Part shown: one piece after another, positions 5,942 to 30,928 of the stretch
Layout: every line of letters starts with the position of its first letter
Position numbering within the stretch: the stretch's first letter is position 1
Assembly: GCA_964373795.1 (NCBI GenBank)
Contig: CAYJVY010000009.1
Coordinates: forward strand, 1 to 32,000
Origin: an uncultured archaeon
GTDB taxonomy: Archaea > Iainarchaeota > Iainarchaeia > Iainarchaeales > DATDZZ01
DNA length: 32,000 nucleotides
Direction of reading: 5' to 3'
Notes under the pieces: generated by a model
The model's database searches: none
What the model saw: the letters and a program-made list of their open reading frames with translations, nothing else
What the model was told of the DNA's origin: nothing
Position numbers and translations under genes: made by a program

Positions 5942-6229
5942 TTATGAAAATAAATCGTTTGTTACAACTTCTTCATTTAACTCTGAATCGTCTAAACCGT
6001 TTTCACTGCTTGCACTTAAGTCTTCAACATCGGTTACACTTGATTCGAATTCATCTAATTCAGTTGTTCCAGTGCTAGAAGAACTTGAAGCTAGTTTTTC
6101 AGTTGCGTCAACAGTTTTAGTAGTTGTTGAATCTGTTTTCTTTGTTGTATCTGAATCTTTTTTTTCTCCGCCAATGCATCCTAAAAGCAATAGCATTACA
6201 ATTAACAAAATTGTAATTAATTTTTTCAT
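5942..6229 (-). CDS. Small acidic Ser/Thr/Asp/Glu-rich putative lipoprotein
   Basis: Signal peptide with a lipobox (MKKLITILLIVMLLLLGC). SD site GAGGTGG lies upstream. Its ATG overlaps the upstream gene's stop as ATGA. Confidence 0.65.
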   Translation of the reverse strand: MKKLITILLIVMLLLLGCIGGEKKDSDTTKKTDSTTTKTVDATEKLASSSSSTGTTELDEFESSVTDVEDLSASSENGLDDSELNEEVVTNDLFS

Positions 6230-7830
6230 TGAACCACCTCATTATTTGAATCAGTTGATTCTGTTGAATTTTCAGACTCATTTGTTGTTTCACTAGTTTC
6301 CTTATTTGCATCTACTTCATTTGTTTCAGTTACAGGAATATCTGTTACTGGTTCAACCTGAATTTCAGTTGGCTGTTCATTTGATTGTAATGCTTTTGCA
6401 TGTTTTGCTGCTTGTTTTGCTAATTGAAAGGAATGTTGTAATCTTTTATGGACTCTTTTAACGAAGTTAAATGCATCTCTTGTTTTTCCTTCTTTGAGTT
6501 TTTCTTTTACTTTTTCAAATGCTTCTTTTGCTTTTGAAACATCTTCTTTAAACGCAGTTAAAGCTAGTTCTAATTTAGTCGTATCTTTTCCTTCAGCTTT
6601 TAATTTAGTTGACAATTCAGTTAATTTATTGAACTGATTTTCTGCATGTTTAATTGCTGCTTCTAACCTGTTTTCTAATGCTTTTCCAACTGTAACTTTT
6701 GCTTTTCTTTTTGCATCTTTATGCAAATCCTTTAATTTTTTTGCAACATCTTTAACTTGTTCTACATTTAAGTCTTCTGCACTTAATGTTTGCTTTAATT
6801 CTTCCAATTGAGTTATTAGTTTTGCAACGTTTTCAGGAGCAGATTCTTTTTCTTTTAATGCATTTAATTGTTCTAGTAATGCATTAATTTTTTCAGTTAA
6901 AACTTCGCCAGCTTTTTCTTTTAATTCTTCTTTCACTTCTTCTTTTTCTTCTTTGCTAGCTTGCTTGAATTTTTCTCTAACTGCCTTTAATTCTTCTTTC
7001 GTTTCTTTAAAGTTTTCTTTTGCTTCTTTGAATTTTTCTCTAAATTTTTCAAATTTTTCTTTTACATCTAAAAAACGCTTTTTTTGAGCGCTAAGTTTTG
7101 GAAGTTTTTCAGCTAATTTTTTTAACCCTGTTTTATCAAGTTTTTCAACTTCTTGTAGTTCTGCTTCTGAAAAGTTTTCAAGTCTCTCCCCTACTGTTTG
7201 AACTTCTTCCTCGCTTAACTCACTTGAAACCTCTGTTACTAATTTAAAGTTTTTAAGTTTTGCAAGCCTTTCAAGATTAGTTGTTCTAATACTTGAAAGT
7301 TTTTCCAATTGTTTTTCATCTAATTCGGCTATTTTTTCAAGATTTGCTTTAGATAAGTTACTAATTCTTTCAAGTCTTTCTTTTTTTAGTGAAGTTAGTT
7401 TTTCCAGTTTTTCTTTCTGTAATGCTCCAAGTTTTTCAAGGTTTTCTTTTCTTAACTCAGTTATATTATCTAAATGTTCTTTTTTTAAATCAGTTAATTT
7501 TTCAACAAATTCTTTATTTATTTTTGAAACTTTTTTAACCTTTCTTTCCTCTAAATTATTTAATTTCTCAAGTTTTTCAGTATTTAATCCTTCAAGTCTT
7601 TTCCTTGTTTGCATATCGCGCTTGTTTTTTAATTTTTCATTGTTTGCTTCAACAACTTTGTCTTTTGAAGGCTTGTCTCCTTCTTTAACTCCCACTTTAT
7701 TTGGGTTGCTTTTATTCACTCCGTCTTTGTTCACTCTTTCAGATGTATTATCTTTTTGAGCAAAAACAGATGAAGAAAATAAGCTAACCAAAAATATTGT
7801 CAATACAGCTAATACAAATAATTTCTTCAT
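6226..7830 (-). CDS. Secreted K/E-rich coiled-coil protein with hendecad repeats
   Basis: SD site AGGAGGG and a signal peptide (MKKLFVLAVLTIFLVSLFSSSVFA). At 534 aa, almost entirely predicted helical, with an acidic T/E/S/N-rich C-terminus. Confidence 0.8.
   Translation of the reverse strand: MKKLFVLAVLTIFLVSLFSSSVFAQKDNTSERVNKDGVNKSNPNKVGVKEGDKPSKDKVVEANNEKLKNKRDMQTRKRLEGLNTEKLEKLNNLEERKVKKVSKINKEFVEKLTDLKKEHLDNITELRKENLEKLGALQKEKLEKLTSLKKERLERISNLSKANLEKIAELDEKQLEKLSSIRTTNLERLAKLKNFKLVTEVSSELSEEEVQTVGERLENFSEAELQEVEKLDKTGLKKLAEKLPKLSAQKKRFLDVKEKFEKFREKFKEAKENFKETKEELKAVREKFKQASKEEKEEVKEELKEKAGEVLTEKINALLEQLNALKEKESAPENVAKLITQLEELKQTLSAEDLNVEQVKDVAKKLKDLHKDAKRKAKVTVGKALENRLEAAIKHAENQFNKLTELSTKLKAEGKDTTKLELALTAFKEDVSKAKEAFEKVKEKLKEGKTRDAFNFVKRVHKRLQHSFQLAKQAAKHAKALQSNEQPTEIQVEPVTDIPVTETNEVDANKETSETTNESENSTESTDSNNEVVQ
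7246..7599 (-). repeat. Eleven tandem 11-residue repeats (L-x-x-E-x-L-E-K-L-x-x) inside the 534-aa protein
   Basis: Hand-parsed units: LNTEKLEKLNN LEERKVKKVSK INKEFVEKLTD LKKEHLDNITE LRKENLEKLGA LQKEKLEKLTS LKKERLERISN LSKANLEKIAE LDEKQLEKLSS IRTTNLERLAK LKNFKLVTEVS. Nucleotide coordinates are derived from residues about 78-195. Confidence 0.7.
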
Positions 7831-7998: not shown

Positions 7999-8646
7999 TT
8001 GTATTACATGGTTAGGGATTTAGATCTTCTTTTATTTTTTGCTGATTTTGGATTGTATCAAAAATGCAGGGTTTCAACAATTGAAATTGCTTTAAGGCTT
8101 GGAGTGTCTCAGCAAACCGTTTCAAGGAAGTTAATGGAGTTAGAGAAAGAAAAACTTATTTCAAGAACTCATAAACATAGAGGGATTGAAATTTCTTTAA
8201 CTGAAAAAGCAATAACTCAATTAAAAGAACATTTCTTGAATTTGAAAAACGTTTTTGAAAAACAACCTAAAAGAGTTGAAGGATTTGTTAGTAATGGAGT
8301 TGGAGAGGGCGCTTATTATATTCAGAAATATAATTCTTTTTTGAAAAAAAAACTTGGATTCAAAGCATTTCCTGGAACATTGAACTTGAAAGTGGATGAA
8401 ATTAAGGTAAAAAATTTTCTTAATCAATTAAACCCTGTTTACATTAAAGAATTTAAAGCAACGAATAGAACCTTTGGGGGAATTACTTGTTATAAGGTTA
8501 AAATTAATTCAGTTAAAGGAGCAATAGTTGTTCCGGATAGAACTCGTTACAGTGCAAATGTATTGGAATTAATTGCTCCACTTTCTTTGAGAAAAAAATT
8601 CGACTTAAATGAAGGATCAAAAATAAATGTTAGCACAATTAAATGA
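7999..8646 (+). CDS. ribK: RbkR-type bifunctional regulator / CTP-dependent archaeal riboflavin kinase
   Basis: N-terminal winged HTH (IEIALRLGVSQQTVSRKLMELEKEKLISR) joined to an MJ0056-type kinase domain (FPGTLNLKVDE, GITCYKVKI, PDRTRY). The track start is TTG 7999; ATG 8008 is an alternative. Confidence 0.85.
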   Translation: MYYMVRDLDLLLFFADFGLYQKCRVSTIEIALRLGVSQQTVSRKLMELEKEKLISRTHKHRGIEISLTEKAITQLKEHFLNLKNVFEKQPKRVEGFVSNGVGEGAYYIQKYNSFLKKKLGFKAFPGTLNLKVDEIKVKNFLNQLNPVYIKEFKATNRTFGGITCYKVKINSVKGAIVVPDRTRYSANVLELIAPLSLRKKFDLNEGSKINVSTIK

Positions 8647-8655
8647 GGAAGAAAA

Positions 8656-9555
8656 ATGAAAATCGGAATAGCTGACACAATGTTCAGCAGAATTGACTTA
8701 ACGGAATTTGCTTTGCAGGCATTGAAAGGAAAATTCAAAGGCAGAATAGAAAGATATACTGTTCCTGGAATAAAGGATTTGCCTGTTGCATGTAAAAAAC
8801 TTTTCGAAGAACTGAGCTGTGACATTGTTCTTGCGCTTGGCTTTGTAGGCAAAGCTTCAATTGACAAGCAATGCGCACACGAAGCAACACAAGGAGTCCA
8901 ACAACTAATGTTGCAAACAGGAAAACACATTTTGGAAGTATTCATTCATTCAAACGAAACCTATACTGAAAAAAAATTATTAAAAATAGCCGAAAACAGA
9001 GTGAAAAAACATGCATTGAATGCAGTTGAATTGCTGAAAGGCGGAAAAGCTTTGCAGAAAAAAGCTGGAACAGGAGAAAGACAAGGCTTTCAAAATGAAG
9101 GAAGAATTTCTTTTCAAAACGCGGACAACCGCAAGCCGAGAATTGGAATTGTTGTTTCAAAAGTTTACCCAGAAATAACTGAAGAAATGCTGAAAATTTC
9201 TCAAATGCGAGCAAAAGAAAGAAAGGCTGAAGTGAAATTCGTTTTACGTGTAGGGGGAAGCTTTGACACTCCTTTAGCAGTAAAACGTTTAATTGAGCGC
9301 ACAGACATTGACGGAGTAATTGTTTTAGGAGCAGTAATTAAAGGCGAAACAAGCCATGATGAAATAGTGGCAGGAAATGCTGCAAGAAAAATTGCAGATT
9401 TGAGTGTAGAATATTCTAAACCAATTGGTTTAGGAATTTCTGGGCCTGGAATGACTAGAAAGCAAGCAATTCAAAGAATTGAAAAATTTGCATCAGATTC
9501 AGTTGACGCTGTTTTAAATTCCTTAGAAGAATTGAAAAAATTGGAGGCAGAATAA
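8656..9555 (+). CDS. ribC/ribH: Fusion of archaeal-type riboflavin synthase (N) and 6,7-dimethyl-8-ribityllumazine synthase (C)
   Basis: Residues 1-150 match the MJ1184 type (MKIGIADTMFSR, TVPGIKDLPVACKKL, CAHEA, GERQGFQNEG). Residues about 160-299 match the MJ0303 RibH type (GSFDTPLAVKRL, VLGAVIKGETSHDEIVAGNAARKIADLSVEYSKPIGLGISGPGMTRKQA). It is one uninterrupted 299-codon frame. Confidence 0.85.
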   Translation: MKIGIADTMFSRIDLTEFALQALKGKFKGRIERYTVPGIKDLPVACKKLFEELSCDIVLALGFVGKASIDKQCAHEATQGVQQLMLQTGKHILEVFIHSNETYTEKKLLKIAENRVKKHALNAVELLKGGKALQKKAGTGERQGFQNEGRISFQNADNRKPRIGIVVSKVYPEITEEMLKISQMRAKERKAEVKFVLRVGGSFDTPLAVKRLIERTDIDGVIVLGAVIKGETSHDEIVAGNAARKIADLSVEYSKPIGLGISGPGMTRKQAIQRIEKFASDSVDAVLNSLEELKKLEAE

Positions 9556-9959
9556 TGAAGAAAACTCTCCTTAATCCAAAAAATTTTACTAAAGCTTTGG
9601 GAAGTTATTCTCATGGATTAAAAATTGAGTTAACTGATTCAAGTTTTATTTTTGTTACAGGACAAATAGCAATGAATGCTGAAGGAAAACTTGTTTCAGA
9701 AAACGTTGAAGATCAAACAGAATTTGTTTTCCAGAACTTGCAAAAAATCTTGCAAGAAGGGGGAGCAAGCCTGGATGACGTTGTAAAAGCAACAATTTTT
9801 GTAACAGATTTAAAAGATTTTCCAAAAATTTCTGCAATAAGAAATAGATATTTTGCAAAAGCAAAACCTGTTTCAACTTTAGTTGAAATAAGTAATACTG
9901 TAAAAAAGGGTTGCAAGGTTGAAATTGAAGTAATTGCAGTATGCAAGAAAGGGATTTAA
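9555..9959 (+). CDS. ridA: RidA/YjgF/TdcF family enamine/imine deaminase
   Basis: Typical RidA layout (YSHG..., FVTGQIAMN, ATIFVTDLKDF, VEIEVIA). SD site GGAGG. Its ATG overlaps the previous stop by 1 nt. Confidence 0.85.
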   Translation: MKKTLLNPKNFTKALGSYSHGLKIELTDSSFIFVTGQIAMNAEGKLVSENVEDQTEFVFQNLQKILQEGGASLDDVVKATIFVTDLKDFPKISAIRNRYFAKAKPVSTLVEISNTVKKGCKVEIEVIAVCKKGI

Positions 9960-11165
9960 ATGACTGAAGGATTTGATTCAATTGAAACTGCTTTAAAAGA
10001 TTTTTTGAAAGGCAAGCCATTAATTGTAGTGGACGATGAAAACAGGGAAAACGAGGGAGACTTAATTGTTGCAGGAGAAAAGTGTTCGCCTGAAGTAATT
10101 AATTTCATGATAAAAGAAGGAAAAGGGTTGGTGTGCGTGCCTTTAACTGAAGAAAAAGCAAGGCAATTGAATTTAAATTTAATGATTTCAGGGAATAAAG
10201 AGTTACATAAATGTAATTTTACTGTTTCAATTGATGCATTAAAAGATTCTTCTACTGGGATTTCGGCTTTTGATCGCGCTAAAACAGTTCAAGAAATTGT
10301 TCGCGATAATTCAACTGAAAAAGATTTCACTAAACCTGGACATATTTTTCCTTTAATTGCAAGAAAAGGAGGATTGTTTGAAAGACAAGGGCATACAGAA
10401 GCTTCAATAGAGTTATGCAAGTTAACTGGCTTGAAAGAAGTTGCAGTAATTTGTGAAATAATTAAAGAAAATGGGGAAATGGCTAGAGTTTCTGATTTAA
10501 TTAAATTCAAGGAAAAACATGGATTGAAATTGATTTCAATAGTTGACTTAATTAGGTATTTAATTGAAAAAACAAAAATAATTAAGAAAGAAGTTGAAAC
10601 AAAGCTTCCAACCAAATTTGGGGAATTTAAATTAATTGCTTTCCAGTCTTTGATTAATGATTTTGAGCATTTGGTTTTAGTGAAAGGAGAAATTACTGGA
10701 AAAGAAAATGTTTTGATTAGAATTCATTCAGAGTGCTTAACCGGAGACTTATTTTCTTCAATGAGGTGTGATTGTCAAAACCAATTGCATTACTCAATGC
10801 AAAAAATTCAAGAAAAAGGAGAAGGATTAATTCTTTATTTAAGGCAAGAGGGAAGAGGCATTGGTTTGTTAAACAAGTTAAAGGCTTATGCATTGCAAGA
10901 TCAAGGCTTGGATACAGTTGAAGCAAACTTGCAGTTAGGGTTTAGAGCAGATGAAAGAAATTATTTAATTGCCGCAAAAATGTTGAAGGAATTGCAAGTT
11001 AAATCAATTGAGTTAATGACTAATAATCCTTCAAAGATATTTGAATTAGAAAAATTCGGAATAAAAGTTGTTCAAAGACATTCAATTCATTCAGAGAAAA
11101 ACAAATTCAATGAACCTTATTTGAAAACAAAAAAAGACAAGTTAGGGCATTTAATTGAAAAATAA
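9960..11165 (+). CDS. ribBA: Bifunctional 3,4-dihydroxy-2-butanone-4-phosphate synthase / GTP cyclohydrolase II
   Basis: RibB motifs (VVDDENRENEGDLI, GHTEAS) and the RibA zinc motif (IHSECLTGDLFSSMRCDCQNQL, YLRQEGRGIGL). Confidence 0.9.
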   Translation: MTEGFDSIETALKDFLKGKPLIVVDDENRENEGDLIVAGEKCSPEVINFMIKEGKGLVCVPLTEEKARQLNLNLMISGNKELHKCNFTVSIDALKDSSTGISAFDRAKTVQEIVRDNSTEKDFTKPGHIFPLIARKGGLFERQGHTEASIELCKLTGLKEVAVICEIIKENGEMARVSDLIKFKEKHGLKLISIVDLIRYLIEKTKIIKKEVETKLPTKFGEFKLIAFQSLINDFEHLVLVKGEITGKENVLIRIHSECLTGDLFSSMRCDCQNQLHYSMQKIQEKGEGLILYLRQEGRGIGLLNKLKAYALQDQGLDTVEANLQLGFRADERNYLIAAKMLKELQVKSIELMTNNPSKIFELEKFGIKVVQRHSIHSEKNKFNEPYLKTKKDKLGHLIEK

Positions 11166-13157: not shown

Positions 13158-13290
13158 AAACAATGTTTTATTTGATTTTTTTAATTCCTGTAATAACAAT
13201 AGCTTTATAAATATCAAAATCTACAATTAATTTACTTTAGTTTAATTAATTTATTAACGTAAACATGTAAATTTTGTGAGGAGAAAAAAT

Positions 13291-14904
13291 ATGCCTGAGA
13301 GACGTTTGGAAAGATTTAAAGCAAGAGCAAAAGAAGCTGTTAGAAAAGTTGCAGGAGTAAGAGAACCTGCTAGAAACGCTTTTTTTAGAGTTACAAGTTT
13401 TTTATCAAGGCTTCCAAGAGACTTTAAAGTACTTAAGGAAAGCTTTAGGGCAACTGTTTTAAAAGAAAACGGTAAGCCAGTTGCAGCAGTAAAAGTAGTT
13501 GGAAGAATTAAAGGAAAAGCATTATTATTAGTTGTTCCAGCGCTTGCAGGTTGTATGACTGTGCAATCACAAGGCGGAAAAGAAACTCGTTTAAAATTAT
13601 TACCTCCTCCAGTGAAAACTGCTCCAAGCACAGCTCCAACTGAAGCAAGAGTTGCTCCTTTTGGAGGATTGCCTGGAATAGTTGAAAGAGCTAGAGCTGC
13701 TGGGCCAACAACAACTGCTTCTACTCCTGGAGTAAGACTTTTAAGATTATATGAAAGAGGTGGTTCTGAAGAAAGAGTTACTGTAAGAAAAGAGCCATTC
13801 ATTATAGGAGTAGACAGAGATGTTGAAACAAGTCTTGCACAAAGAGGGGGAAGAGATTTAAATTCATTAACTTTTGATGCTGGAAGAGTAGCTAACTTAA
13901 GAGATGCTGAAGTAAGTGCTTTTCTTGAAACTGAAAACTTTTTTTCAGGGCCAAGAGGAGGAATAACTGAAAAAGTTCCTCATGCAGGCACTGGTTCAGG
14001 AGATGTTACAACTCGCACTCCAATAAATTTAAGAGAGTCACTGCATTTAAGCAGGTTTGGAGTAGGAGTTGGAAAAGATTTAACTGGTTTGCTTAGAAAA
14101 GGAAATATTTCCCTTGGTTTTAGCAATGCAAGGCTTGTTAAAGGAAGTGAGAGATACGGAGTTAATGGGTTTCATTTAGGGGGAAGACTTGAAGCAGCTC
14201 CAATTCCAGGAGTTCAAAATGTTCAAGCAGTTGTAGAAGGATTTATGGAAAGAGTTGGAAGCATTAGTAATGATAGATTAAGAGCAGAACTTAGAGGAAC
14301 AATTCCTTTAACTAGAGAGGGACAAGCAGTTGCTCATGTTCCAAGAGAATTAAGTACTGCAGAAAAAACAGCTGCAGCAGCTGCAGGAGCAAAAATTGAA
14401 GCAACTCCTACAGGTTATGACTTGATTTGGGATTTAGGTTTAACTCATACTCAAATATCTAAAGGAATAGATGAATTAGAAGGGCAAGCAGGAATTGGAC
14501 TTGTAAGAAAAGGAAAACGTGGAAGTGAAACAGGTTTAAGAGCATTTTTGGTATTTAACCCTGCAACAAGAGAAGGACAAGCAGAACTACATTTTGGAAG
14601 AAGTATGGGTGTAGGAGCTCAAGGATGGTGGACTGTTCGTCCTGGTTGGCCAACAGTTGTTGCAGACATTGAATACAGAGGTTCAGGAGAAATGTCAGCT
14701 TCTTTAGGAATTGATATTAAAAGCCTTTTAGGTGGTGAAGGGAAAAAGAAACCATCTCCTGCTGCAGAACCAATTCCAGAGAAAGACAGGGAAAGAATGA
14801 GATATTACTATGCTCCGCCTGCAGGTAGACCAGGAGAGCATTATGCTTCTACTAGTTATAGGCCTCAAAAAACAACTCCTAGAAGCGGGAAAAGAAGTAG
14901 ATAG
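13291..14904 (+). CDS. Orphan Arg/Gly/Ala/Thr-rich exported or membrane-anchored protein (537 aa)
   Basis: ATG 13291 lies 7 nt after GAGGAG (the track GTG 13276 lies within or before that RBS). There is an internal signal-like h-region plus lipobox (KALLLVVPALAGC, Cys codon 13552-13554). The 1.6-kb frame is long and open with AT-ending codons (AGA, GGA, GCA, GTT). A hairpin plus T-tract follows directly after the stop. Confidence 0.75.
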   Translation: MPERRLERFKARAKEAVRKVAGVREPARNAFFRVTSFLSRLPRDFKVLKESFRATVLKENGKPVAAVKVVGRIKGKALLLVVPALAGCMTVQSQGGKETRLKLLPPPVKTAPSTAPTEARVAPFGGLPGIVERARAAGPTTTASTPGVRLLRLYERGGSEERVTVRKEPFIIGVDRDVETSLAQRGGRDLNSLTFDAGRVANLRDAEVSAFLETENFFSGPRGGITEKVPHAGTGSGDVTTRTPINLRESLHLSRFGVGVGKDLTGLLRKGNISLGFSNARLVKGSERYGVNGFHLGGRLEAAPIPGVQNVQAVVEGFMERVGSISNDRLRAELRGTIPLTREGQAVAHVPRELSTAEKTAAAAAGAKIEATPTGYDLIWDLGLTHTQISKGIDELEGQAGIGLVRKGKRGSETGLRAFLVFNPATREGQAELHFGRSMGVGAQGWWTVRPGWPTVVADIEYRGSGEMSASLGIDIKSLLGGEGKKKPSPAAEPIPEKDRERMRYYYAPPAGRPGEHYASTSYRPQKTTPRSGKRSR

Positions 14905-14942
14905 GTTTAACTTCTTTAAACCTTTCTCTTTTTATTTTTTTT
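14903..14942 (+). terminator. Hairpin plus T-tract after the 537-aa ORF
   Basis: AGGTTTAA-CTTCT-TTAAACCT forms a perfect 8-bp stem (14903-14923), followed by TTCTCTTTTTATTTTTTTT. Confidence 0.55.
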
Positions 14943-15015
14943 CATATATATTATGTTAATTAAATTCAATGAATACTAAATTAATATTGTAAAACTCTTA
15001 TTTTATTTGATTAAA

Positions 15016-15675
15016 ATGGCTAAAAAAAAACAACCTAAAGCAAAAAAACCTGTTTTAAAAGCTAAAAAAAAGCCTGTTAAAGCTAAAACTGTTAAAAAGC
15101 GTGTTTTAAAGCATAAGTTAGGTAAGAAAGCTCTTAAAGCGAAAAAAACAGCTAAAAAAGGAGTTAAAGAAGTTAAAGGCAGTAAAACTGGTGGAAAACT
15201 AAGTGAAGCCTTTTTAAGAGATGTTGAAAAATATTTAAACGATAGAAGAGAAGAGTATTTTTTAACTGATGAATTAATTTCTTCTTATTTGGATGCTGTT
15301 AAAAGCGTTTTAAATCAAACCAATAATGTTAATGATGTTTTAGAGAAATTTGTTTCAAGATTTCCTGATAGAAAAAAGGGTTATAACGATGAAAATTTTA
15401 ATAAAAGGATTTACACTGATTTAGCTTGCCTTGTTGTTTCAAAAGAAAAAGTGAATGAAAAACTTGTACTTAAATTAATTGAAGAATTAATTAATGTTTT
15501 AGAATTCGAGTCAAAAATTCCTTGCTTTGATGAAATGGATTACGATGCCAAACACGAGCAAATGGGTAGACAAGTAAGAAATCTTAGAACATTAAACAAA
15601 AACGAATTAGTTGAAGAAATGCTTAAAAAATTCACTTTCCTTAAATTTTTTTGGGATCACGAAAAAACTCTTTAA
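15016..15675 (+). CDS. Hypothetical protein with histone-H1-like Lys/Ala/Pro-rich N-terminal tail
   Basis: MAKKKQPKAKKPVLKAKKKPVKAKTVKKRVLKHKLGKKALKAKKTAKKGVKEVKG is followed by an unrecognised domain of about 155 aa. The track start TTG 15007 is an alternative. Confidence 0.6.
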   Translation: MAKKKQPKAKKPVLKAKKKPVKAKTVKKRVLKHKLGKKALKAKKTAKKGVKEVKGSKTGGKLSEAFLRDVEKYLNDRREEYFLTDELISSYLDAVKSVLNQTNNVNDVLEKFVSRFPDRKKGYNDENFNKRIYTDLACLVVSKEKVNEKLVLKLIEELINVLEFESKIPCFDEMDYDAKHEQMGRQVRNLRTLNKNELVEEMLKKFTFLKFFWDHEKTL

Positions 15676-30334: not shown

Positions 30335-30928
30335 ATGCTCATGAAATTAAATTCAATTCAAGTTTTAGTTTTAATCTTAATAGTGTTTGTTTTAGCTAGT
30401 GGGTGTGTTTTAAATCAATCTGCCTCAAAATTAACTGATTCAACAGCTGGGCAACCAAAGCTTGGAACAAAAACAGAGCTTAAACTAACTAGCTCAGCAT
30501 TTAATGATGGCGAATTCATTCCATTCAAGTATAGTTGTGAAGGAGGAAACAATAGTCCTCCATTAGAAATTACTGGCTTGCCTCAAGAGACTAAGAGTTT
30601 GGTTTTAATAATGGACGATCCAGATGCAGTTGAAGTTGTTGGATTTATTTTTAATCATTGGACTGTATTTAACATTGATCCTTCTACTACTTCAATTAAA
30701 GAAAATCAAAAATTTGGAACTCTGGGAACTACTGGGGCGAACGAAAAAGCTTATTTAGGGCCTTGTCCTCCGCCTCCTAGAACTCATACTTATTCTTTTA
30801 AGTTGTATGCTCTTGGTTCAACTTTGAGTGTTTTTGAAGGCGTAACGAGAGATGAAGTTGTAAAAGCAATGCAGGGAAAAATTCTTGCACAAACAGAGTT
30901 AAAAGGTAAATATAAGAGTTCTGGGTAA
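30335..30928 (+). CDS. PEBP (YbhB/YbcL, Raf-kinase-inhibitor-like) family lipoprotein
   Basis: Signal peptide with lipobox VLASGC. PEBP motifs LIMDDPDA, HWTVFNI and GPCPPPPRTHTYSFKLYAL. Confidence 0.85.
   Translation: MLMKLNSIQVLVLILIVFVLASGCVLNQSASKLTDSTAGQPKLGTKTELKLTSSAFNDGEFIPFKYSCEGGNNSPPLEITGLPQETKSLVLIMDDPDAVEVVGFIFNHWTVFNIDPSTTSIKENQKFGTLGTTGANEKAYLGPCPPPPRTHTYSFKLYALGSTLSVFEGVTRDEVVKAMQGKILAQTELKGKYKSSG

Follow-up and report, generated by a model that had tools for sequence, protein, structure and literature searches.

An orphan archaeal protein family with a selected arginine- and glycine-rich composition and a conserved internal lipobox

The stretch of DNA considered here, called the window throughout, comprises positions 1 to 32,000 (forward strand) of contig CAYJVY010000009.1 from an uncultured archaeon of the Iainarchaeota (GenBank assembly GCA_964373795.1). 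Positions 13291-14904 on its plus strand hold an open reading frame (ORF) that encodes a protein of 537 amino acids (aa) counted from its ATG, the mechanical ORF start being a GTG at 13276. Its neighbours are small genes without known function, and it lies between ribD and a cysteine desulfurase gene. As judged from its sequence, this protein, the target of our analysis, stands for a true orphan family whose atypical composition is under selection and whose internal lipobox is conserved; the protein is lipoprotein-like, but the lipobox lies far outside the position that canonical lipoprotein signals occupy. The target probably belongs to the cell-membrane-associated proteins by virtue of this unusually placed lipid-anchor signal. 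The features of the locus, which were defined in part by comparison with a full-length homologue (P0003) and with a partial gene from a related strain (contig L003), are the following:

13191..13213, plus strand: promoter, read from the sequence as a block resembling a transcription factor B recognition element (BRE), ATAACAATAGCTT, followed by a TATA box, TTTATAAATA (13204-13213)
13214..13290, plus strand: 5′ leader, conserved and unstructured, with a Shine-Dalgarno-like GAGGAG (13278-13283) 7 nucleotides (nt) 5′ of the ATG
13291..14904, plus strand: coding sequence of 537 aa, defined by the ORF, its composition, the ratio of nonsynonymous to synonymous substitution rates (dN/dS) against L003 and the full-length homologue P0003
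13291..13515, plus strand: N-terminal basic segment, residues 1-75, with a net charge of about +16 and an invariant PVAAV
13297-13299 and 13330-13332, plus strand: codons 3 and 14, which carry single-nucleotide polymorphisms (SNPs) between the window and contig L006
13516..13554, plus strand: hydrophobic h-region and lipobox, KALLLVVPALAGC, with the codon of Cys88 at 13552-13554
13555..13785, plus strand: variable Pro/Thr/Ala/Ser-rich region, residues 89-165, a presumed tether; at 21% its identity to P0003 is the lowest in the protein
13786..14745, plus strand: conserved Gly/Arg-rich core, residues 166-485, delimited by alignments with the relatives
14311-14328 and 14566-14583, plus strand: two copies of TREGQA (residues 341 and 426), located by motif search
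14746..14901, plus strand: basic Pro/Tyr/Arg-rich C-terminal tail, residues 486-537, recognized by its net charge
14903..14947, plus strand: terminator, recognized by its fold energy, an 8-bp hairpin AGGTTTAA/TTAAACCT (14903-14923) followed by a T-tract

The composition of the target sets it apart from the other 37 ORFs of the window. It contains 10.2% Arg, 5.6% Lys, 12.1% Gly, 9.9% Ala and 6.5% Pro, has a net charge of +30 and a single Cys, and ends in ...SGKRSR; the corresponding z-scores are +3.0 for Gly, +2.6 for Pro, +2.5 for Arg, +2.3 for Ala and -2.1 for Lys. An exact recount gave 55 Arg and 30 Lys, precisely the numbers that had been estimated by hand in the original prediction. The ratio R/(R+K) is 0.65, the highest among all 38 ORFs, and the runner-up is ribosomal protein L15e with 0.54. 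The raised local G+C content that had been proposed is also found (0.37-0.40 at the target versus about 0.30 for the window), and it is strongly periodic with codon position: G+C at the first, second and third positions (GC1/GC2/GC3) is 0.54/0.52/0.13, the GC2 of the 37 other ORFs being 0.17-0.40 and the GC3 of the target being among the lowest in the window.

This departure concerns the amino acids and not the codons that specify them. Synonymous codon choice is indistinguishable from that of the other window genes (AGA 0.80 versus 0.79, GCA plus GCT 0.98 versus 0.90), so that the anomaly lies at the amino-acid level and does not reflect foreign DNA, as the original prediction had argued. A foreign origin of the gene itself is not supported either, given the native codon use and the fact that of the only two relatives, P0003, the one with informative flanks, resides on an AT-rich contig. 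The antisense ORF of 182 aa that had been described as a by-product of this composition is present (13254-13802) and is broken or absent at related loci; since it is not conserved there, we regard it as a shadow ORF.

HMMER, run exhaustively over 1.84 billion cluster-representative proteins, recovered only two true relatives, P0003 and P0002, both of which retain the same architecture; a third match, P0004, was discarded as a spurious repeat protein. P0003 has 512 aa, aligns with the target from end to end at 32% identity and is encoded on the AT-rich contigs L001 and L002. The stretch of the target that was matched best in the HMMER search comprises residues 327-483. P0002, in turn, covers the first part of a gene carried by a 698-bp contig, L003, on which the upstream gene of the target is found as well; once a frameshift is corrected, the L003 product and the target share 74% identity over 175 aa. 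Furthermore, a contig from the same sample as L001, L006, represents a near-identical strain with 99.97% nucleotide identity to the window. Scans by pattern and by tblastn of contigs from genomes, viruses and metagenomes yielded no further relatives, and when 5.8 billion proteins were searched through a word index, nothing but the queries came back. Neither the target nor P0003 had a match in Pfam, NCBIfam, PHROGs or PADLOC, and sequence searches of the PDB with the single protein and with profiles yielded only a weak match to Drosophila eL18, which is discussed below. The statement of the original prediction that no family was recognizable thus held in the library and PDB searches, and by all these searches the target represents a very narrow orphan family that is confined to a few samples.

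Narrow as it is, the family is constrained. For the comparison with L003, dN/dS amounts to 0.52 as a whole (Fisher p = 0.002) and falls to 0.24 in codons 126-175, while dN reaches 0.335 in codons 91-125. Together with the G+C periodicity and the full-length homology with P0003, a ratio below 1 indicates that the gene is under constraint, and these comparisons demonstrate a real, conserved ORF under purifying selection. The same can be said of its composition. P0003 has 10.2% Arg, 5.5% Lys and 12.3% Gly with a GC1/2/3 of 0.50/0.47/0.08, and its near-identical R/K/G content on another AT-rich contig, along with the host-like codon usage of the target, identifies the Arg/Gly-rich composition at the sequence level as a family trait that is selected and not imported. 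That proteins only 32% identical keep nearly the same proportions of Arg, Lys and Gly at a GC3 of 0.08-0.13 further argues that, in a proteome dominated by Lys, arginine has been strongly selected over lysine.

The only Cys of the target, Cys88, lies within LLLVVPALAGC, and the corresponding Cys is likewise the only one in each full-length member of the family. We defined a lipobox as [LVI][ASTVI][GAS]C or by the core of PROSITE PS51257, {DERK}(6)-[LIVMFWSTAG](2)-[LIVMFYSTAGCQ]-[AGS]-C. Matching stretches are LLLVVPALAGC in the target (P0001) and in P0005, ALLVLPLLAGC in P0003 and LLLFVPFAAGC in the frame-corrected L003, and the PS51257 core pattern is found in every family member. A basic n-region is provided by GRIKGK, GKRGGR or GRSKGR, which precedes 11-12 uncharged residues. 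No hydrophobic segment exists in the protein outside residues 76-88, a stretch of 11-15 residues with a Pro at its centre, and residues 76-91, which are 56% identical to P0003, are the most highly conserved block of the family. The lipobox that had been noticed in the target alone therefore goes beyond chance, being kept in three lineages, holding the sole Cys and lying in the best-conserved block.

The earlier observation that no alternative start lies close to the h-region was borne out as well, there being no in-frame ATG, GTG or TTG from about codon 40 up to it. In keeping with this, residues 1-75 are 39% identical to P0003, which is above the average of the protein, and this conservation at the protein level indicates that the N-terminal segment is translated. 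Conservation begins right at the N-terminus (MPERRL.R for the target, MPRPERRL.R for P0003), which supports the annotated start. Two other kinds of export signal were rejected. In twin-arginine translocation (Tat) signals, the motif S/T-R-R-x-F-L-K directly precedes the h-region; the only RR of the target is at residues 4-5, 70 aa before its h-region, and is absent from L003 (PKPRMLR). Class III signals, as in type IV pilins and archaellins, have a short leader, a [KR]-G cleavage site and about 20 hydrophobic residues; in the target, the leader would be 75 aa long and the hydrophobic run is just 11-15 residues.

The organism encodes at least one canonical lipobox protein, a PEBP/YbhB-family member specified elsewhere in the window (30335-30928, plus strand), whose signal, MLMKLNSIQVLVLILIVFVLASGC, with LASGC and Cys24, is followed by a Ser/Thr/Gln-rich linker. 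Both lipobox proteins and the lipidation enzymes AliA/AliB are, by one published account (PMC12462473), prevalent among the Euryarchaeota and DPANN. This prevalence and the PEBP protein, combined with the basic patch, the short uncharged stretch, the sole-Cys lipobox and the variable tether of the target itself, argue for a lipoprotein-like reading. We therefore favour, tentatively and with other readings still in play, a lineage-restricted, native and probably abundant envelope protein that is tethered to the membrane in the manner of a lipoprotein and carries an N-extended signal. Its export, topology, lipidation, cleavage, abundance and function are what we infer from the sequence.

In such a scheme, the conserved and strongly basic N-terminal segment of about 75 aa would remain in the cytoplasm, and ALLLVVPALAG would act as an internal, N-extended lipoprotein-type signal that inserts with its N-terminus inside and its C-terminus outside. 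Cys88 of LAGC would then be thioether-linked to archaeol by machinery of the AliA/AliB type, with cleavage before the Cys being optional. The Gly/Arg-rich ectodomain of about 450 aa, with a net charge of about +14, would be held by its Pro/Thr/Ala-rich tether on the external side of the membrane, where its positive charge could bind anionic lipid head groups, the underside of a surface layer or a partner cell. The role of the protein would accordingly be structural or adhesive and not enzymatic. The core carries the motifs GR[DE][LV]NxLxFDxG, GIGL, AFLxF and GWWT, and the 143 invariant positions of the whole alignment are dominated by Gly (35 positions), Leu and Arg, with no His, no Tyr and one Asn; that neither His nor Tyr is invariant argues against an enzyme.

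In this context, the neighbourhood of the distant homologue deserves mention. The P0003 gene lies directly upstream of a gene (L001:1957-5409) for a surface protein that exceeds 1151 aa and has a signal peptide, Ig-like domains of the Big_13/Big_7 type, contents of 14% for Ser, 14% for Thr and 9% for Asn, and numerous N-X-S/T sequons; by these features it is probably a major surface or S-layer-type glycoprotein. This adjacency is compatible with an envelope function for the family, though it proves nothing.

Several observations weigh against this interpretation and are best considered together. Canonical lipoprotein signals place the Cys at about residue 15-35, while it is found at residue 88 in the target and at residue 82 in P0003. 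We know of no archaeal precedent for a conserved extension of 75 aa before a lipobox, and a literature search for precedents of N-extended lipobox signals returned nothing relevant. The two bona fide signals of the window are longer than the hydrophobic stretch of the target and also more hydrophobic. Other exported proteins known from these organisms are Lys-rich or Ser/Thr/Asn-rich with very little Arg, and the target has only one N-X-S/T sequon. Furthermore, L003 carries a 2-nt deletion (L003:396-420) within the hydrophobic stretch, which results in an N-terminal product of 96 aa and an ORF that restarts at a Met just behind the lipobox; a pseudogene, strain variation or an error of assembly could account for it. 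Lastly, an Arg/Gly-rich composition with a charge of +30 is more typical of nucleic-acid-binding proteins.

In another explanation, the target would span the membrane once as a type II (N-in) protein and would not be cleaved. Here the basic segment of about 75 aa would be a cytoplasmic module that binds DNA, RNA or a partner, the 450 aa beyond the membrane would form an extracytoplasmic sensor or binding domain, and LAGC would simply mark the outer boundary. The N-terminal segment, with its identity of 39% and its invariant PVAAV, is as conserved as the remainder of the protein, its charge of about +16 and its modelling as helices would suit such a module, and the charges that flank the hydrophobic stretch favour an N-in orientation. 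The promoter and leader, which are conserved above the level of the coding sequence, could moreover fit autoregulation. However, 11-15 residues with a central Pro are short for a stable membrane span, the presence of a single Cys in a perfect lipobox across three lineages would go unexplained, Pfam and NCBIfam scans detected no DNA-binding family, and expression signals as strong as these are unusual in regulators. On balance, we consider a type II protein plausible, if less likely.

AlphaFold2 returned a predicted local distance difference test (pLDDT) score of 35 both with one and with three input sequences, drawing residues 1-75 as helices and residues 62-103 as strands, both at low confidence. 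A Foldseek search with this model gave no match at E <= 0.001, as was to be expected, since a model with a pLDDT of 35 is unusable. The beta-rich, possibly barrel- or sandwich-like fold that the original prediction had suggested found no preference over alpha structure in Chou-Fasman propensity or hydrophobic-moment scans. With regard to an outer-membrane beta-barrel, there was no match to an outer-membrane protein family in Pfam or NCBIfam, the C-terminal residue is non-aromatic and the model is again that of pLDDT 35. The description of the motif TREGQA in the original prediction as occurring twice was accurate, the copies being at residues 341 and 426, but they do not point to a domain duplication: the similarity is local (16 residues), self-comparison by hhalign gave E = 0.27 and self BLASTP showed no internal repeat. 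The basic Pro/Tyr/Arg tail that it described stood for the target and did not extend to the family, being largely absent from the 512-aa P0003.

In a further reading, the target would be a cytoplasmic protein that either binds nucleic acid or associates with ribosomes or other ribonucleoproteins (RNPs); its Arg/Gly-rich composition would serve the binding of RNA or DNA, and the hydrophobic stretch would be a buried strand-turn-strand. Its net charge of +30 or +24, its three RGG tripeptides and the highest R/(R+K) of the window, with ribosomal protein L15e coming nearest, would be at home in such a protein, as would the scarcity of glycosylation sequons and the low-confidence strands that AlphaFold2 placed at residues 62-103. 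In addition, a profile of the N-terminal region matched residues 49-112 of Drosophila eL18 (E = 0.027). This match was to Drosophila eL18 solely, with no human, yeast or archaeal L18 matching even at E <= 10, and hhalign against a hand-assembled eL18/L18e alignment gave a probability of 0.15%; we hence regard it as a chance match, and membership in eL18/L18e, for which there is also no Pfam match, was rejected. Pfam and NCBIfam scans detected no RNA-binding family. The conserved sole-Cys lipobox and the variable Pro/Thr-rich stretch that adjoins it would be left without an explanation, and the family is extremely narrow, unlike core RNP components. We therefore think a cytoplasmic role rather improbable.

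A more elaborate version of the lipoprotein-like reading takes the N-terminal extension at face value. The 87 conserved, Arg-rich residues before Cys88 might constitute a bifunctional, N-extended lipoprotein signal of a type undescribed in archaea, whose cleavage at the lipobox would yield a highly basic scaffold of the envelope that is anchored by archaeol and might, for instance, partner the surface layer from the membrane side, and a free basic cytoplasmic peptide with an activity of its own, such as binding nucleic acid or its own mRNA leader. We offer this as speculation, and a decidedly doubtful one.

The abundance that we envisage derives from the expression signals. The original prediction had framed the gene as a strongly expressed monocistron, and the TATA box, the GAGGAG and the hairpin with its T-tract were all found as it described them. 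The terminator hairpin folds with -10.3 kcal/mol (z = -4.0), and none of 200 shuffled sequences folded equally well. The leader has no stable fold (z = +0.98) and no Rfam match, and we found no riboswitch or structured RNA in it. High expression is thus predicted from sequence signals alone, and on this ground the protein probably is abundant.

Promoter and leader are also notable for their conservation. Between the window and the strain represented by L003, 90 of 93 positions are identical in 13191-13283, as opposed to only 57 of 90 in codons 1-30. The promoter block ATAAC[AC]ATA[GA]CTT..T[AT]TAAATATCAA is unique in the window and recurs 5′ of the distant P0003 gene (L001:141-170). The shared BRE/TATA block and the conserved leader suggest a cis-regulation that is specific to the family. 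By comparison, the window and the Logan contig L006 differ at only 2 of 6206 nt, and both changes are nonsynonymous and fall within the target (E3K and K14R). Leader and promoter identity, the shared block and these SNPs in codons 3 and 14 combine to indicate a tightly conserved control of expression next to a fast-changing N-terminal tip. Just 5′ of the P0003 promoter, L001:8-110 contains 7.4 tandem copies of the 14-nt unit AAAAGAATGTTAAC (Tandem Repeats Finder score 127), which look like an iteron or an array of transcription-factor sites; no such 14-nt tandem array occurs within the window.

The genomic surroundings of the target bear on one last explanation. The window is a core chromosomal archaeal segment that encodes ribosomal L15e and L37ae, exosome subunits, proteasome alpha, SBDS and prefoldin, as well as a TrmB-family regulator and a DUF1699 protein. 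The target could in principle have come from a virus or mobile element as one of its structural proteins, for instance a capsid-like protein with basic arms that is now chromosomal: its N-terminal arm and C-terminal tail are both basic, the family is an orphan, narrow and fast-evolving, and the genes on its flanks are small and without known function. Yet relatives were found neither in PHROGs and IMG/VR contigs nor, by tblastn, in plasmids and 50,697 phage records, codon usage is fully native, and the gene is embedded in the core chromosomal segment between riboflavin genes and the cysteine desulfurase gene. There is no integrase domain among the flanking genes scanned, no repeat or tRNA at the borders of the target (the sole tRNA gene of the window is 8.5 kb away), and no viral or defence family match near the target except for weak, sub-threshold matches of the DUF1699 gene. 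A viral ancestry strikes us as very improbable.

Some of the neighbouring genes are worth recording in their own right. The riboflavin cluster of this archaeon (7999-11165, plus strand) is led by a fused helix-turn-helix (HTH)/CTP-dependent riboflavin kinase, an RbkR-like regulator, and comprises a 299-aa protein with two stretches that resemble 6,7-dimethyl-8-ribityllumazine (DMRL) synthase, RidA, and bacterial-type fused RibBA and RibD. When GTDB genomes were scanned with RibD, the matches were bacterial and distant throughout. The downstream neighbour of the target (15007-15675, plus strand) encodes 222 aa with 20% Lys overall, the first 60 or so residues being Lys/Ala/Pro-rich in the manner of histone H1, and no family match was found for it. 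On the minus strand, 6226-7830 encodes a second orphan exported protein of 534 aa, with 18% Lys and a classic Sec signal, MKKLFVLAVLTIFLVSLFSSSVFA, and without a Pfam or NCBIfam match.

If the lipobox of the target is functional, it would follow that archaeal lipoprotein signals can be preceded by a cytoplasmic segment that is both long and conserved. Such proteins would escape the predictors now in use, which expect the Cys no further than about 35 residues from the start. As a substrate, the family would then also offer an unusual test of the newly discovered AliA/AliB pathway, though its confinement to a few samples may limit its wider importance.

How the target relates to known systems depends on which of its parts is compared. 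With the ribosomal proteins eL18/L18e it shares an Arg-rich composition, and ...VVGxxxxxAxLLVVPxLxxC... resembles the strand-turn-strand of Drosophila eL18, but the target is four to five times longer. With ToxR/CadC-like regulators and anti-sigma factors it has in common the order of parts, in which about 75 basic aa at the N-terminus are followed by a single hydrophobic segment and then by a large domain at the C-terminus. There is, however, no detectable homology with any such family, the hydrophobic segment of the target is too short for a typical span and carries a lipobox, and the expression signals are strong.

The prokaryotic lipobox lipoproteins are the group that the favoured reading invokes. 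The target resembles them in its basic stretch, its short uncharged hydrophobic region, the [LA]-A-G-C with an invariant Cys and the variable Pro/Thr/Ala-rich tether. It differs from them in that its signal is internal, behind a conserved Arg-rich segment of about 75 aa, and in that its putatively lipidated mature part is highly basic and falls into no known lipoprotein family. For the extension itself, a parallel may be drawn with the Rem/Env signal peptide of mouse mammary tumour virus (MMTV), a bifunctional signal peptide of a eukaryotic virus that is 98 aa long. There, too, a long and conserved basic extension precedes the hydrophobic core of the signal. The parallel is an analogy only, as it concerns another domain of life and another machinery without any sequence relationship; being conserved, the N-terminal extension of the target probably serves a separate function.

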